DNA from: Candidatus Nomurabacteria bacterium
GTDB taxonomy: Bacteria > Patescibacteriota > Saccharimonadia > Saccharimonadales > VXPC01
NCBI GenBank assembly: GCA_020631905.1
Contig: JACKGQ010000001.1
Span: forward strand, 613,854 to 677,853
DNA length: 64,000 bases
Direction of reading: 5' to 3'
The translations under genes were made by a program, and so were the position numbers. The notes below the pieces were generated by a model. It saw only the letters and a program-made list of their open reading frames with translations, was not told the DNA's origin and ran no database searches. Positions 7,183 through 61,450 of this stretch are shown piece by piece. Position 1 is the stretch's first letter. Each line of letters opens with the position of its first letter.

Positions 7183-7235
7183 TAAACAAACTATTCTAGA
7201 CTAAAGCAATCATGTATACTTTGTTTGCATTTTTT

Positions 7236-7303
7236 AGGGGAGTAGCTCAATTGGTAGAGTAGCGGTCTCCAACCCGTACCTTGCAAGGCACGGGGCAGGT
7301 TCG
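7236..7303 (+). pseudogene. truncated tRNA-Trp copy (5' 37 nt identical to the intact gene, then a hairpin insert and 9 nt of T-arm)
   Basis: Positions 7236-7272 are identical to 7568-7604 (acceptor, D-arm and anticodon loop up to CTCCAA). Positions 7273-7294 (cccgtaccttgcaaggcacggg) form a hairpin. Positions 7295-7303 (gcaggttcg) equal 7616-7624. No T-arm 3' strand or acceptor 3' strand follows. Confidence 0.8.
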
Positions 7304-7316
7304 TTAAAATTACATC

Positions 7317-7577
7317 GTGCATTACGTTTATGTCCTTAGCTCTGTGGGTAAACCTGGGTGGCATTACTATGGGAGTACTTCAGACTTACAACGTAGATAC
7401 GCGGAACATATTAAGGGTATGGTTAAATCAACAAGTGCCTACAAGCCACTAAAACTTGTATATTACGAAGCATATTTAACAAAACAAATGGCTGCAGAAA
7501 GAGAGAAACAATTGAAGAAAAGTCGTTCTGCAACCAAAGCCTTGTTAAGTAGAATAAGGCCAGATTTAGGGGAGTAG
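7317..7577 (+). CDS. small GIY-YIG (URI-domain, YhbQ/COG2827-like) nuclease family protein
   Basis: The 86-aa translation MHYVYVLSS...WHYYGSTSDLQRRYAEH...LVYYEAY...AAEREKQLKK fits the GIY-YIG core (YxYxL, YxG, R, E). It has a GTG start, and its stop TAG lies inside the first 10 nt of tRNA-Trp. Confidence 0.8.
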   Translation: MHYVYVLSSVGKPGWHYYGSTSDLQRRYAEHIKGMVKSTSAYKPLKLVYYEAYLTKQMAAEREKQLKKSRSATKALLSRIRPDLGE

Positions 7578-7643
7578 CTCAATTGGTAGAGTAGCGGTCT
7601 CCAAAACCGTTGGTTGCAGGTTCGAGTCCTGTCTCCCCTGCCA
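7568..7643 (+). tRNA. trnW: tRNA-Trp (anticodon CCA)
   Basis: The hand-folded cloverleaf has acceptor AGGGGAG/CTCCCCT, anticodon stem GCGGT/ACCGT, loop CTCCAAA, T-loop TTCGAGT and an encoded CCA. Length is 76 nt. Confidence 0.93.
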
Positions 7644-55614: not shown

Positions 55615-55801
55615 AAAGCCGGGTGCTAGCCCCGGAATGATGAGTTATTCAGATATTAGAAACTACCTACCACTTACGAGGCTAACAACCGGCTGAATAT
55701 GTAGATGTAGTTTGATCACTATCTTCTTATTATAGCATGCTTTGCCTAGTAATGTCAAGCTTATGCTTGCTCTTTATGGGTTTTGATGGTTAAATCTTGG
55801 C

Positions 55802-55872
55802 AACTTTGGAGGCAAAAGTCTCTGGAGAAGTACATCCTGTCCTAAATCAGACCTAGCTCCCGAGGAGGAGTC
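55802..55872 (+). promoter_or_regulatory. conserved 5' leader, copy 1 (Clp-N cassette)
   Basis: The sequence AACTTTGGAGGCAAAAGTCTCTGGAGAAGTACATCCTGTC...CTAGCTCCCGAGGAGGAGTC-ATG is nearly identical to 56748-56818. It contains GGAGG / CTCC / GGAGGAG (Shine-Dalgarno) elements. Confidence 0.7.
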
Positions 55873-56565
55873 ATGTTCGATCGTTTTACGCAAGAAGCCA
55901 AGAATGCGGTAATTCTGGCGCAAGAAGAAGCCCGCCTGCATGGCCACACTTATCTTGGCACCGAGCATCTGCTACTGGGGATTCTGCACCAGAACAACAG
56001 CATGGCCGTTACAGCCCTCGAGTGTCTTGGGCTAACATTGGAGCCTGTCCGCCAGCAAGCGCTCGAGATTCTCGGTGTTGGTAGCACATCCCCAAACGTG
56101 CTTCCGTTTACGCCGCGGGCAAGGAAGGTGCTCGAGCTGGCCTACCGTGAGTCGGAACAACTTGGTTCGAATTATATTGGCCCTGAGCACTTGTTGCTCG
56201 GCATTCTGCGCGAAGGAGAAGGCATCGCTTGCCAGACGATTGTGGCGCTCGGCGTCGATCTCGAACATGTCGAGCGCACTGTGATGGGTTCGATCGAAGC
56301 TGCGGATGCCGACACCAAACTCGTTGACGCTGTAAGTAGAACGGTCTATCAGATGTTCCATCGGCACGTCGCAAAGATTGCCAACGCACCACGACTGGAG
56401 GTCGTACCGGTAGTAGTCGTCATCGAGCCAGGTGAGCAGTCGTCGCATAGCGCGACCATCTTGCCGGTTGAACCCGACGTCGAGCAAGTTCTCTTGGCAG
56501 CGCTCGAACGCAGTGACAAAGCCTGCATCACGCTCGCCGATCTCCGCATGGTTCTCGGTAATTAA
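55873..56565 (+). CDS. stand-alone Clp N-terminal (Clp_R repeat) domain protein, no AAA+ module
   Basis: The sequences MFDRFTQEAKNAVILAQEEARLHGHTYLGTEHLLLGIL...LPFTPRARKVLELAYRESEQLGSNYIGPEHLLLGILREGEG form two Clp_N repeats. There is no Walker A motif. A hand-counted sample gives ~62% GC. Confidence 0.9.
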   Translation: MFDRFTQEAKNAVILAQEEARLHGHTYLGTEHLLLGILHQNNSMAVTALECLGLTLEPVRQQALEILGVGSTSPNVLPFTPRARKVLELAYRESEQLGSNYIGPEHLLLGILREGEGIACQTIVALGVDLEHVERTVMGSIEAADADTKLVDAVSRTVYQMFHRHVAKIANAPRLEVVPVVVVIEPGEQSSHSATILPVEPDVEQVLLAALERSDKACITLADLRMVLGN

Positions 56566-56574
56566 CGACTAGAC

Positions 56575-56675
56575 GACAGGATGTAAATCTAGACGCTTCT
56601 CGAGGCACCACCAAGCCTTTCGAGACCGTCATAACCCGCTGAGGAAACTCAGCGGGTCTGTCATTTTAGGCAGAT
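56575..56675 (+). repeat. conserved structured 3' tail, copy 1
   Basis: This 101-nt element matches 57616-57716 at 100 of 101 positions. The closing stem is GACAG/CTGTC, with hairpins TCTCGAGG...CTTTCGAGA and ACCCGCTGAG-gaaa-CTCAGCGGGT. Confidence 0.9.
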
Positions 56676-56747
56676 CTCTAAGTGCCAAGTAACTTACATC
56701 CATTTCATGTCTTTGTTGCAGACTACATATTGTGTTATAGTATAGGT

Positions 56748-56818
56748 AACTTTGGAGGCAAAAGTCTCTAGAGAAGTACATCCTGTCAAAATAGACACCT
56801 AGCTCCCGAGGAGGAGTC
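56748..56818 (+). promoter_or_regulatory. conserved 5' leader, copy 2 (Clp-N cassette)
   Basis: It matches 55802-55872 except for one G/A change and an 11-nt variable patch. It is preceded by TTGTTG-17-TATAGT with TG (extended -10). Confidence 0.7.
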
Positions 56819-57616
56819 ATGTTCGAACGTTTTACCGACCGAGCTCGTCGTGCTGTCGTTGACGCTCAAGAAGAGGCACGACTGCTCAACCACTCGTACA
56901 TCGGCACCGAACACCTGCTGATTGGGCTGACATACAACTCATATGCGGATGAAGGTGGTCTTTCTCAGCAAATCATGGCAGCCCTCGGGGCCGACGTTGA
57001 GACACTGAGGGAACAAGCACGCGAAGTATTCGTAAACGACACCCAAGTTAGGGCTGGCTCGCATATCCCGTTTACACCGCGGGCCAAGAAGGTGCTCGAA
57101 CTGTCGCTCCGCGATGCCCTCCAGCTTGGGCACAACTACATCGGCACCGAACACTTGCTGTTGGCGTTGGCGCGTGAAGGCGGTGGCGGAGCTGCCAAAA
57201 TCATGGAGAACCTTGGCATCGACTTCAGGTACGGCTTCATCAAACAAGTTGTCATTTACATGTTGAACCAAAAAACCAGCGCTCGGGTGGCGGTTGCTCA
57301 TGCTGTGAGCGAGAAGATGCAACCAACGCTCACGCCTAGCCAAGCCGCCGAGGTCGACGCAATGGTCGACCGGCTCATGCCCCAGCTCGTCGCTCAGACT
57401 GTTGCCGGACAAGAATCAGTGACAAGTGATGGCAAGCTCGCACGTCTGGTGCTGACGACAATCCAAGACAGCCGTCCTGGAATGATTCGAGTCGAGCCGG
57501 CAGTGCTGGAACTGGTGTTAAGAGCTGTCGAACTCAACCCGAATACAGCCAGCGTTACGACTGGCCAACTGATGGCGATTCTTCAGTCGCCGGAGGCACC
57601 GGGGCTGCAGAAATAG
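56819..57616 (+). CDS. stand-alone ClpC1-like N-terminal domain protein with unique C-terminal extension
   Basis: The sequences MFERFTDRARRAVVDAQEEARLLNHSYIGTEHLLIGL...IPFTPRAKKVLELSLRDALQLGHNYIGTEHLLLALAREGGG are very close, from memory, to the actinobacterial ClpC1 NTD. There is no AAA+ module. Confidence 0.92.
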   Translation: MFERFTDRARRAVVDAQEEARLLNHSYIGTEHLLIGLTYNSYADEGGLSQQIMAALGADVETLREQAREVFVNDTQVRAGSHIPFTPRAKKVLELSLRDALQLGHNYIGTEHLLLALAREGGGGAAKIMENLGIDFRYGFIKQVVIYMLNQKTSARVAVAHAVSEKMQPTLTPSQAAEVDAMVDRLMPQLVAQTVAGQESVTSDGKLARLVLTTIQDSRPGMIRVEPAVLELVLRAVELNPNTASVTTGQLMAILQSPEAPGLQK

Positions 57617-57716
57617 ACAGGATGTAAATCTAGACGCTTCTCGAGGCACCACCAAGCCTTTCGAGACCGTCATAACCCGCTGAGGAAACTCAGCGGGTCT
57701 GTCATTTCAGGCAGAT
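57616..57716 (+). repeat. conserved structured 3' tail, copy 2
   Basis: See copy 1. This copy starts at the G of the stop codon TAG. Confidence 0.9.
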
Positions 57717-59873: not shown

Positions 59874-60734
59874 ATGACTCACCAAAAGAATTCTGAATCC
59901 CGCGCACTATACGCGCTCATGGTGGTCCTCTTGGTCTGCGTACTCATCTTGGGGCTTATTTCCGCCTTCGGCAGTCCTTGGAGTCAAGCTCAGCCAGCTG
60001 ACGACTATACGTCGTCCGAGTTGTACTCGTTGCAGGTTCAGCAGATCGCCGATCTCAAACAGCAGGTCGAAGACATGCAGCAGCAGATCTCCGAACTCCA
60101 GACCGAGCTCGATAGTACGGCGGTGGGCGTCTTCGACACGCCACCCAGTGACACAGTGGTCACCGCAACCACTATCGACCTCGACGCGGCTTCGCGCGAG
60201 GCATGCATCCACTACCGTGATGATCCGTTCTTTTTGGCCGACTTTTCCGAGGGCTTCGTCTTCGGAGGCGCCGAGTGCACCCCTGGCCACTTCTGGGGCG
60301 TGCTTTGGCCGGCCAACGACACCTATGTCATCACCACGCCCGAAGGGCTTAACTTCGACGATGGGTTTGCCAGTGTCGGGTTCGACGACAACTGGTACGG
60401 CATACCCGCCAGCCTGCGTCATCCGGCCTATGCAGACGCACTAACCCTGGAAGAGCTGACTCAGCTCCCACCAGGGACAATCATCTGCCGACGGACTGGC
60501 AACAACCCCGAACATGCCACAGAGCATGTCTTCTTCGAGGCAAGTCTAGTGGTCTACGAATACGACGGGTCACTTTATCCTCGCTGGACAGACAGTCAGG
60601 GTATGGCCTCGAGCTTGAGCTCGTGGAGCCTCGAAGATGACGGGGTGATCCCATACAGCAACTACACCGATACCGAATGGTACGGCGGCTGGAGTGGGAC
60701 TCGTCTGACACTGGGAAGGTGTAACGCGGTGTAA
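59874..60734 (+). CDS. hypothetical membrane-anchored protein, high GC (likely foreign origin)
   Basis: The 286-aa ORF has an N-terminal TM helix, a Gln-rich coiled coil (QVQQIADLKQQVEDMQQQISELQTELD) and a Trp/Gly/Asp-rich C-terminal domain. A hand-counted sample gives ~67% GC. Two hairpins follow (60741-60769 and 60766-60810). Confidence 0.7.
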   Translation: MTHQKNSESRALYALMVVLLVCVLILGLISAFGSPWSQAQPADDYTSSELYSLQVQQIADLKQQVEDMQQQISELQTELDSTAVGVFDTPPSDTVVTATTIDLDAASREACIHYRDDPFFLADFSEGFVFGGAECTPGHFWGVLWPANDTYVITTPEGLNFDDGFASVGFDDNWYGIPASLRHPAYADALTLEELTQLPPGTIICRRTGNNPEHATEHVFFEASLVVYEYDGSLYPRWTDSQGMASSLSSWSLEDDGVIPYSNYTDTEWYGGWSGTRLTLGRCNAV

Positions 60735-60997: not shown

Positions 60998-61082
60998 GCG
61001 GATGTGGTGGAATTGGTAGACACGCTAGCCTTAGGAGCTAGTGCCGCAAGGCGTGAAGGTTCAAGTCCTTTCATCCGCACCA
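60998..61082 (+). tRNA. tRNA-Leu (anticodon TAG)
   Basis: This is a type II tRNA. The acceptor is GCGGATG/CATCCGC, the anticodon arm is CTAGC-CTTAGGA-GCTAG, the variable arm is long, the T-loop is TTCAAGT and CCA is encoded. Confidence 0.93.
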
Positions 61083-61364: not shown

Positions 61365-61450
61365 GCGGATGTGGCGAAATGGCAGACGCGCTAGCTTCAG
61401 GTGCTAGTGTACGCAAGTACGTGGAGGTTCAAGTCCTCTCATCCGCACCA
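61365..61450 (+). tRNA. tRNA-Leu (anticodon CAG)
   Basis: It has the same acceptor, GCGGATG/CATCCGC. The anticodon arm is CTAGC-TTCAGGT-GCTAG, the variable arm is long and CCA is encoded. Confidence 0.93.

Follow-up and report, generated by a model that had tools for sequence, protein, structure and literature searches.

Near-identical untranslated regions on two diverged ClpC1-N-domain genes of a Saccharibacteria bacterium: a candidate 5'UTR-3'UTR pairing element

Two adjoining ClpC-N-domain genes lie within a 64-kb stretch of DNA from a Saccharibacteria (TM7) bacterium (the whole of which is referred to here as the window). The genes have diverged strongly from each other and their untranslated ends are almost identical. 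All features described are on the + strand. ORF1 (55873–56565) encodes 230 aa, comprising a ClpC1-type Clp_N domain and a lineage-specific C-terminus, and ORF2 (56819–57616) encodes 265 aa, comprising a ClpC1-type Clp_N domain and an orphan C-terminal part of 130 aa. The two proteins are 47% identical over 139 aa, their C-termini are not alignable, and synonymous sites in the Clp_N core are saturated (pS = 0.71, dS > 2). The best relative of the ORFs with a solved structure is the N-domain of M. tuberculosis ClpC1 (E = 2e-45). phrog_35667 matches them at 1e-43 and 1e-46, and mycobacteriophage matches are 53–55% identical. The C-terminus of ORF2 had no relative besides itself among 1.84 billion representatives, and in a plasmid collection searched with blastn only the coding part of ORF2 has matches, to actinobacterial clpC. 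The composition of the ORFs is foreign, with a GC3 of 0.61 for ORF1 and 0.62 for ORF2 compared to ~0.4 for the host Saccharibacteria. Stand-alone ClpC1-N-domain proteins occur in Actinobacteria, for example mycobacterial ClpC2 (PMC10030653). The ORFs resemble ClpC2 and the mycobacteriophage proteins (phrog_35667; Myrna gp251) in being Clp_N-only, but differ from them in that the host belongs to the Saccharibacteria and the C-terminal part of ORF2 has no relatives.

The identity of the flanks was measured by pairwise alignment and with a repeat finder. Each ORF is preceded by a leader and followed by a tail, and we refer to the whole unit as a cassette. The leader blocks (55799–55889 and 56745–56835) fall into three segments. 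The first (55799–55841 versus 56745–56787) is identical at 41/43 positions, the second is a variable patch (55842–55852) in which only 5/11 positions match, and the third (55853–55889), which reaches 17 nt into the ORF, is identical at 36/37. The tails (56575–56675 versus 57616–57716) are identical at 100/101 positions, T56667 versus C57708 being the sole mismatch. A sequence-only reading of the window had described near-identical leaders interrupted by one 11-nt patch, 101-nt tails matching at 100 positions, and flanks far better conserved than the ORFs that they enclose; all three descriptions were reproduced. The borders of the identity are sharp, with 16/39 matches directly 5' of the leader (the region of the two predicted promoters), 5/30 directly 5' of the tail, and 7/45 directly 3' of the tail. 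Neither the promoters nor the spacer between the blocks (56676–56744), which is AT-rich (GC 0.33), is conserved between the cassettes. The junctions from ORF1 to its tail, from that tail through the spacer and second leader to ORF2, and from ORF2 to its tail were all recovered in short-read assemblies of two SRA runs. An assembly artefact is ruled out because these independent assemblies contain the same junctions.

The identical blocks most likely represent the 5' and 3' UTRs of two distinct mRNAs, because they start at about the transcript start predicted from an extended -10 element and end past a terminator-like hairpin. The locus is predicted to hold two ClpC1-N-domain-like genes, each with its own promoter and each set in the same pair of UTRs. 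Both promoters were read from the sequence. Predicted promoter 1 (55767–55795) consists of TTGCTC, a 17-nt spacer and the extended -10 TGgTTAAAT, with a start at about A55802. Predicted promoter 2 (56713–56741) consists of TTGTTG, a 17-nt spacer and the extended -10 TGtTATAGT, with a start at about 56748, and sits within the non-conserved spacer. A consensus promoter scan did not report the promoter of cassette 1. Leader 1 (predicted 5'UTR, 55799–55872) comprises a 5' hairpin with four G-U pairs (55804–55827), the 5' arm X' (TACATCCTGTC, 55831–55841; ~30 nt from the predicted start and 32–42 nt 5' of the ATG), the variable patch, and a hairpin that carries the SD (55856–55871; GCUCC/CGAGGA/GGAGU). 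Leader 2 (56745–56818) has the same order, with the 5' hairpin at 56750–56773, arm X' at 56777–56787, the patch at 56788–56798 and the SD hairpin at 56802–56817. The sole substitution within the 5' hairpin (G55824/A56770) converts a U-G pair to U-A. Arm X' is unpaired in the fold of leader 1, while in leader 2 its last four bases take part in a weak 4-bp hairpin. The predicted 5'UTR would thus be ~71 nt long, with a hairpin near its 5' end, an exposed 11-nt arm (UACAUCCUGUC) and a small SD-bearing hairpin.

Tail 1 (predicted 3'UTR, 56575–56675) comprises arm X (56575–56585), hairpin 1 (56592–56630), a terminator-like hairpin (56634–56657), the segment X'' (CUGUC, 56658–56662), a U-run (56664–56667) and hairpin 3 (UCUGUC/GGCAGA, 56657–56674). 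In tail 2 (57616–57716), arm X (57616–57626) overlaps the final base of the ORF2 stop codon, the terminator-like hairpin is at 57675–57698 and X'' at 57699–57703, and hairpin 3 is followed by TTTTGTTTGTT. The MFE structure of the tail has a closing stem (GACAG/CUGUC) that encloses hairpin 1 and ACCCGCUGAG-GAAA-CUCAGCGGGU, which is the closed two-hairpin fold that had been proposed. Its z-score is -5.1 and 0/200 shuffles fold as well. The second of these hairpins has the form of an intrinsic terminator, with a 10-bp stem containing 7 G-C pairs and a GAAA loop, followed by CUGUCAUUUU. The true 3' end is uncertain because the U-run is interrupted (CUGUCAUUUU) and conservation extends past it to 56675. 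As predicted, the 3'UTR would begin 0–10 nt past the stop codon with the complementary arm (GACAGGAUGUA) and continue with one or two hairpins and the terminator-like hairpin. The 3' arm also contains CAGGAUG, which we take to resemble CsrA-binding repeats; the relative discussed below, L006, retains only GGA at that place.

The leader and tail of each cassette are joined by an exact complement. The sequence-only reading had pointed out that an 11-nt segment of the leader is the reverse complement of the first 11 nt of the tail, and this was found in both cassettes. The 11-mer (TACATCCTGTC/GACAGGATGTA) occurs four times in the 64-kb window, always in the cassettes, and a perfect leader-tail complement of 11 nt arose in 1/2000 shuffles. 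When full-length mRNAs were folded, the helix was present in the MFE structure with a pair probability of 0.9–1.0 in mRNA1, mRNA2 and the L006 mRNA, although thermodynamic folding tends to pair mRNA ends and caution is required in interpreting these values. Among 27 control constructs from the window, one formed an 11-bp and one a 9-bp 5'/3' helix at p > 0.5, and 1/47 other genes in the window has an 11-nt complement between its 5' and 3' flanks, in that case AT-rich.

The nearest sampled relative, L006 (HisRS 65% identical), has a syntenic Clp_N gene which is divergent from the SLOG-HisRS genes. Its Clp_N UTRs are unrelated in sequence to those of the window and have the same architecture of 5'/3' complement, SD hairpin, closing stem and terminator. 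The L006 leader segment GAACCUGUCCGUG pairs with the tail segment CAUGGACGGGUUC over 13 bp including two G-U pairs, an extent reached by 5/2000 shuffles. The complement is thus contiguous in all three cases, and perfect over 11 bp in both cassettes of the window. The arms of L006 are placed as they are in the window: ~30 nt separate the predicted start from the 5' arm, and the 3' arm follows the stop codon by 6 nt. When the arms are anchored on CCUGUC, U-A becomes A-U, C-G becomes G-C and U-A becomes U-G from the window to L006, giving two doubly changed pairs and one wobble among nine shared pairs in this single relative; the L006 helix is extended on the other side. The closing stem of the tail changes from GACAG/CUGUC to UGGACG/CGUCCA (A-U to G-C), and the terminator stem contains three doubly changed pairs, with a UUCG loop in place of GAAA. 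All three leaders are also predicted to form a hairpin in their 5' part, in L006 as a 7-bp inner hairpin inside a longer predicted stem. Both the 5' hairpin and the L006 helix contain G-U pairs, as fits a structure formed by sense-strand RNA. Hairpin 1 is absent from the L006 tail, and a MAFFT alignment of the tails placed the end of the L006 ORF against it. This comparison is based on predictions for two lineages and three cassettes, two of which are copies of each other. Among the HisRS neighbours, the SLOG-Clp_N block was found only in L006 and not in P0123, P0124, P0125 or P0127 (HisRS 56–59%). The L006 Clp_N protein has its best further match, one of actinobacterial type, at 40% identity, and a probe from the conserved SLOG-leader block designed to retrieve related loci gave 0 matches.

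The two sets of UTRs in the window appear to have a history distinct from that of the ORFs between them. A recent duplication followed by accelerated divergence of the ORFs, the scenario that the sequence-only reading had named against itself, is excluded because synonymous sites are saturated (dS > 2), in contrast to one change per 101 nt of tail. Sequence in common between the L006 and window UTRs is limited to the CCUGUC core within the leader arm and to CAUAACCC ahead of the terminator. Slow evolution does not, judging by this comparison, account for the near-identity of the two copies, which must therefore have been homogenised recently, either by gene conversion limited to the UTR blocks or by replacement of the ORF body between constant UTRs. 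It is the identity pattern that points to gene conversion. Duplicated bacterial genes such as tufA/tufB undergo concerted evolution by gene conversion. As in such cases, the copies here are near-identical within the genome and diverged from orthologues elsewhere, but in this locus homogenisation would have been restricted to the untranslated blocks (88 and 101 nt), with the coding bodies saturated with change.

Together, these observations suggest that the element is probably a real mRNA control element and not a mobile cassette. We favour, with moderate confidence, a cis-acting 5'UTR-3'UTR clamp of the hbs type, the two copies of which are held identical by gene conversion. The 5'-3' mRNA clamp proposed in the sequence-only reading has computational support in the pair probability of ~1 and in the 13-bp complement, of other sequence, that L006 has at the corresponding positions. 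Pairing of the two arms would hold both ends of the mRNA together, while a free 3' arm could instead close the 3'UTR by pairing with the CUGUC just past the terminator hairpin. The clamp may be coupled to translation, because a ribosome halted at the stop codon would cover the 3' arm. Such a cis-acting post-transcriptional element would most likely, on the model of B. subtilis hbs, protect the leader and the 3' end against ribonucleases, although the sign of the effect (stabilising versus repressing) is not derivable from sequence.

In the hbs mRNA of B. subtilis, a 14-bp helix joining the 5'UTR to the 3'UTR limits cleavage by RNase Y (Braun, Durand & Condon 2017, PMC5737220). Like hbs, the mRNAs described here are short, with a strong SD and a contiguous long-range UTR helix that does not cover the SD (14 bp in hbs, 11 bp here and 13 bp in L006), and protection of the leader from endonuclease cleavage is the mechanism that we favour. 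The hbs helix was shown by experiment, whereas the helix here is predicted. Unlike in hbs, the 3' arm adjoins the stop codon and has a second, local partner past the terminator hairpin, identical arms are common to two paralogues, and the organism belongs to the Saccharibacteria. In S. aureus icaR, the 3'UTR also pairs with the 5'UTR (Ruiz de los Mozos et al. 2013, PMC3868564), there through a UCCCCUG motif that base-pairs to the SD, prevents initiation and makes a substrate for RNase III. By contrast, the 5' arm here (55831–55841) ends 20 nt 5' of the SD run (GAGGAGGAG, 55862–55870), and the SD has a local hairpin of its own.

It is also possible, if rather unlikely, that there is no special element, the tail being a terminator with extra hairpins and the leader a plain 5'UTR, with their identity due to recent gene conversion or partial duplication and the 11-nt complement a product of chance or a remnant (such as that of a hairpin once split by an inserted gene). 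Predicted 5'/3' helices are not rare, as the 11-bp helix in 27 controls and the 11-nt flank complement in one of 47 genes indicate. The leader is no more stable than its shuffles (z = +0.68), and a search of Rfam at E <= 10 returned no family match, the lone spurious snoRNA match lying outside the element. The probes used recovered no further copies of the leader or tail: there were none in the window, 0 matches to the terminator hairpin and a leader 22-mer in IMG/VR, 0 matches to a 21-mer from the 5' end of the tail in JGI metagenomes, and among the GTDB species representatives only one unrelated terminator in a Terriglobales MAG (hairpin probe). Against this explanation, L006 has an independent complement at the same positions with both arms changed (5/2000 shuffles), its closing stem and SD hairpin are likewise kept with different bases, and the identical blocks match the extent of the predicted transcript and leave out the promoters.

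The pairing could instead act in trans if the 3'UTR were set free as a small RNA that starts, at its 5' end, with the arm, extends as far as the terminator, and targets both 5'UTRs in feedback or cross-regulation of the paralogues. The arm does open a compact structure that ends in a terminator, both leaders offer the same target, with X' unpaired in leader 1 and partly in a weak 4-bp hairpin in leader 2, and mRNA-mRNA interaction has a precedent (PMC8722363). We consider this improbable given that there is no evidence for processing or an internal promoter, pairing in cis is strongly favoured in the predictions, and L006 perhaps has a single cassette.

Still less probable is a role at the DNA level, either as sites for a site-specific invertase that turns the ORF around with respect to its promoter, which would give phase variation, or as the ends of a mobile cassette, the second of which the sequence-only reading had raised. 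An 11-bp perfect inverted repeat encloses the SD and ORF but not the promoter, a fold is likewise predicted for the tail in single-stranded DNA form (z = -5.35), and the ORFs are of foreign composition. However, the arms are internal to the conserved blocks, set back from their ends by 32 nt on the left and 90 nt on the right, and no direct repeats were found at the four block borders; a transposon or MITE is rejected because the inverted repeats are not terminal and target-site duplications are absent from the borders. No recombinase, transposase or integrase domain was recognisable in the neighbouring ORFs. An integron attC site is rejected because the R''/R' core sites (GTTRRRY) are lacking, GTT being absent from the + strand of the tail and present on the - strand solely as GTTAT, and because the neighbouring ORFs showed no integrase domain. 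Three independent Logan contigs continue through the 5' arm and show no branch of the kind expected from mixed orientation, both mismatches of the L006 repeat are G-U pairs on the sense strand, and the 5' hairpin requires four G-U pairs. With the probes likewise recovering no further copies, mobile-cassette termini are not supported.

The switch proposed for the leader fared only partly better: its three motifs (GGAGG, CTCC and GGAGGAG) are present and an SD hairpin is predicted in 3/3 leaders (the two cassettes and L006), with a 5–6-bp stem, a 6-nt loop and the SD in the 3' strand, while the upstream GGAGG, the proposed anti-anti-SD, has no counterpart in L006. That this hairpin is the main function, a thermosensor or switch for Clp-related genes with the 5'/3' complement secondary, seems very unlikely. 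The hairpin keeps its geometry despite different sequence, and Clp genes count among the classical heat-shock genes, but the stem-loop is short and weak. A three-part SD-sequestering switch or RNA thermometer is not supported, given the missing GGAGG, the leader z-score of +0.68 and the lack of a match to any Rfam thermometer or riboswitch family.

Returning to the cis-acting clamp, pairing of the 5'UTR with the 3'UTR within one bacterial mRNA has been documented experimentally in very few cases, of which we found two, hbs and icaR, and we know of none from the Candidate Phyla Radiation. The pairing described here is backed by comparison with a relative and is present on two diverged paralogues. 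Compensatory mutants and paralogue swaps would thus provide a clean experimental test. The locus also suggests an unusual form of concerted evolution, in which homogenisation is confined to the untranslated blocks and change in the coding bodies has reached saturation. A further idea, to which we attach little probability, is that the unchanging leader and tail serve as a reusable expression frame for ClpC1-N-domain genes from high-GC (actinobacterial) donors. ORF bodies would be swapped by recombination in the identical UTR blocks, as a cassette system without a dedicated integrase, and the clamp would make a closed-loop mRNA that returns terminating ribosomes to the start site. Saccharibacteria live on Actinobacteria, in which the ClpC1 N-domain is an adaptor hub and an antibiotic target. 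We speculate that the ClpC1-N-domain look-alikes encoded at this locus may act in the relationship between host and epibiont.

The cassette locus lies in the genome of a Candidatus Saccharibacteria member and comprises two Clp_N genes, ORF1 (55873-56565, 230 aa; NCBI hypothetical protein MCA9325345.1) and ORF2 (56819-57616, 265 aa; MCA9325346.1), each with a leader (55799-55872 and 56745-56818) and a tail (56575-56675 and 57616-57716). As the sequence-only reading had claimed, the leaders are near-identical apart from one 11-nt patch, the tails match at 100 of 101 positions and the proteins between them have diverged heavily. Identity between the cassettes, in cassette 1 coordinates, is 16/39 in the upstream flank, 41/43 at 55799-55841, 5/11 in the variable patch (55842-55852) and 36/37 at 55853-55889, which includes 17 nt of the ORF. 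It is 59/101 over the next 101 nt of the ORF, and 5/30 and 7/45 in the flanks directly before and after the tail. The proteins could be aligned over a 139-aa Clp_N core only (47% identity), in which synonymous sites are saturated (pS = 0.71, dS > 2). All cassette junctions were recovered in short-read contigs of two SRA runs, interrupted only within the tail's 93-nt identical run, as expected of the k = 31 graph that we assumed for the assembler.

Putative plus-strand promoters with extended -10 elements were read from the sequence, ending at 55795 (TTGCTC-17-TGgTTAAAT) and 56741 (TTGTTG-17-TGtTATAGT). The promoter regions are unrelated and AT-rich (GC 0.33-0.35, compared with 0.51 in leader plus tail). 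Cassette identity begins at the predicted transcript starts (~55802 and ~56748) and stops shortly 3' of a terminator-like hairpin, which suggests, most simply, that the identical blocks are the 5' and 3' UTRs of two separate mRNAs.

Within these blocks, an 11-nt leader stretch (55831-55841, UACAUCCUGUC; the 5' arm, ~30 nt from the predicted start) is the reverse complement of the first 11 nt of the tail (GACAGGAUGUA; the 3' arm, 0-10 nt past the stop), confirming the inverted complement described previously. The 64-kb window contains four occurrences of the 11-mer GACAGGATGTA, each inside a leader or tail, and a perfect 11-nt leader/tail complement arose in 1/2000 shuffles. The tail adopts the closed two-hairpin fold that had been proposed (z = -5.1). 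When the 3' arm is engaged, the tail CUGUC is predicted to pair with a downstream GGCAG, forming a third hairpin whose loop contains the sole tail mismatch between the cassettes.

The only sampled organism sharing this arrangement is represented by a Logan contig, L006 (HisRS 65% identical), in which a 201-aa Clp_N gene is divergent from the SLOG gene; the block with both genes is absent from the more distant Saccharimonadales sampled. The UTRs of the window and L006 are almost wholly different in sequence but alike in architecture. L006 has a TTTACA-17-TATAGT promoter (extended -10 in the window), a hairpin in the leader's 5' part as in the window (7-bp inner hairpin in L006), a 5' arm (GAACCUGUCCGUG) ~30 nt from the predicted start and a 3' arm (CAUGGACGGGUUC) 6 nt past the stop. 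Hairpin 1 of the tail is absent from L006, while both have a terminator (ACCCGCUGAG-GAAA-CUCAGCGGGU in the window, ACCCACCGG-UUCG-CCGGUGGGU in L006; three doubly changed pairs) and a closing stem (GACAG/CUGUC and UGGACG/CGUCCA; one doubly changed pair, A-U to G-C). In L006 the two arms pair over 13 bp, two of them G-U, which only 5/2000 shuffles of its leader and tail equalled. Beside a shared CCUGUC core, in which one U-A pair of the window is U-G in L006, the three neighbouring pairs, U-A, A-U and C-G in the window, are A-U, A-U and G-C in L006. Two further contigs of the L006 locus, from different SRA runs (L012 6679-6735 and L013 1530-1586, corresponding to L006 1-57), terminate at the identical base, 57 nt past the Clp_N stop and directly 3' of the terminator hairpin. 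This indicates a graph branch, and the terminator segment may therefore be repeated in that genome.

Whole-mRNA partition-function folds placed the 5'/3' helix in the MFE structure, with pair probabilities of 0.9-1.0, for both window mRNAs and L006. As a control, 27 other window genes were folded with flanks of 72 nt and 103 nt; one 5'/3' helix of 11 bp and one of 9 bp were predicted at p > 0.5. One case alone is therefore unconvincing, and the weight of the evidence lies in finding the helix at corresponding positions in two lineages whose bases differ. Pairing of the arms within one mRNA as a cis-acting control element, as the sequence-only reading had suggested, is the best-supported reading, with about an even chance of being right: the independent complement in L006 favours it, and the helix is a predicted one. 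Tail 1 could also pair with leader 2 on a read-through transcript.

Alternatively, the 3'UTR may give rise to a small RNA that acts in trans. The proposed three-part Shine-Dalgarno (SD) switch is not supported: the upstream GGAGG is absent from L006, shuffled sequences fold as stably as the leader and Rfam gave no match. The predicted SD hairpin itself is common to the window (5-bp stem, 6-nt loop) and L006 (6-bp stem, 6-nt loop). The anatomy does not support the arms as termini of a mobilisable cassette, MITE or attC site: they are internal to the blocks rather than at their ends, there is no target-site duplication at the cassettes, GTTRRRY core or recombinase, and no other leader or tail copies were found in the collections searched. 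An inverton, in which the segment between the arms flips, is conceivable but has no support; contigs run through the 5' arm without a branch.

Purifying selection cannot account for 100/101 identity of tails in paralogues with saturated synonymous sites, because UTR sequence has changed almost entirely between the window and L006. Recent homogenisation of the UTR copies is needed, either by gene conversion limited to the two UTR blocks or by exchange of one ORF body while its flanking UTRs stayed constant; both are compatible with the present data.

Both ORFs encode ClpC1-type N-domains, with the Mycobacterium tuberculosis ClpC1 N-domain as best solved match (E = 2e-45). ORF1 (54%), ORF2 (59%) and the L006 protein (44%) are each closer to this domain than to either of the other two; ORF1 and ORF2 share 44% in the core, compared with 33-34% for either of them with L006. 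GC3 is 0.61-0.62 in ORF1 and ORF2 (0.61-0.65 including L006 58-663) compared with 0.30-0.46 in host-like neighbours, a foreign composition, and over its first 380 nt ORF2 matches clpC of actinobacteria (Arthrobacter, Nocardia, Nonomuraea) at 75-81% identity. The genes may thus have come from a high-GC donor, which is plausible rather than proven; the donor was possibly the epibiont's actinobacterial host. A search of 1.84 billion representative proteins gave ORF2 alone as a relative of ORF2 residues 136-265 (57224-57613), which align weakly with the ORF1 C-terminus (25%); these 130 residues are an orphan extension of the conserved domain. Stand-alone N-domain proteins are found in mycobacteria (ClpC2; PMC10030653). 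Mycobacteriophages also encode such proteins.

The locus is flanked by a divergent SLOG(LDcluster4)-HisRS-trigger factor-ClpP-rpoB block, whose HisRS matches a partial protein of NCBI MAG GCA_020428525.1 at 100% identity, and by an unknown convergent gene. On the minus strand at 55615-55758, a perfect sigma-70 promoter (TTGACA-18-TATAAT with TG) precedes a ~105-nt leader predicted to fold (z = -5.07) into one long hairpin that ends in a U-run immediately 5' of the SLOG-HisRS operon. L006 retains its 5' block (GATYAAACTWCATCTACATATTCRGCCGGT) and the hairpin, four pairs being doubly changed. The leader matched no Rfam family; it is a candidate attenuator or riboswitch. Elsewhere, a compositionally foreign 286-aa ORF (59874-60734; GC3 0.70, the region's highest) adjoins two tRNA-Leu genes (60998-61082 and 61365-61450) and matched nothing in Pfam, NCBIfam or PADLOC; PHROG gave only a faint hit to a tail fibre. 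An exact 40-nt direct repeat (7233-7272 and 7565-7604) consists of the 5' half of a tRNA-Trp gene (7568-7643) and a partial duplicate 332 nt upstream, and may be an insertion or rearrangement remnant.

The nearest experimentally shown system is the Bacillus subtilis hbs mRNA, in which a 14-bp helix that joins the 5'UTR to the 3'UTR restricts leader cleavage by RNase Y (PMC5737220). In icaR, the 3'UTR pairs with the SD (PMC3868564), which, unlike in the Clp_N cassettes, is the target of the pairing. The Clp_N cassette element is predicted to be a new member of the small hbs/icaR class.
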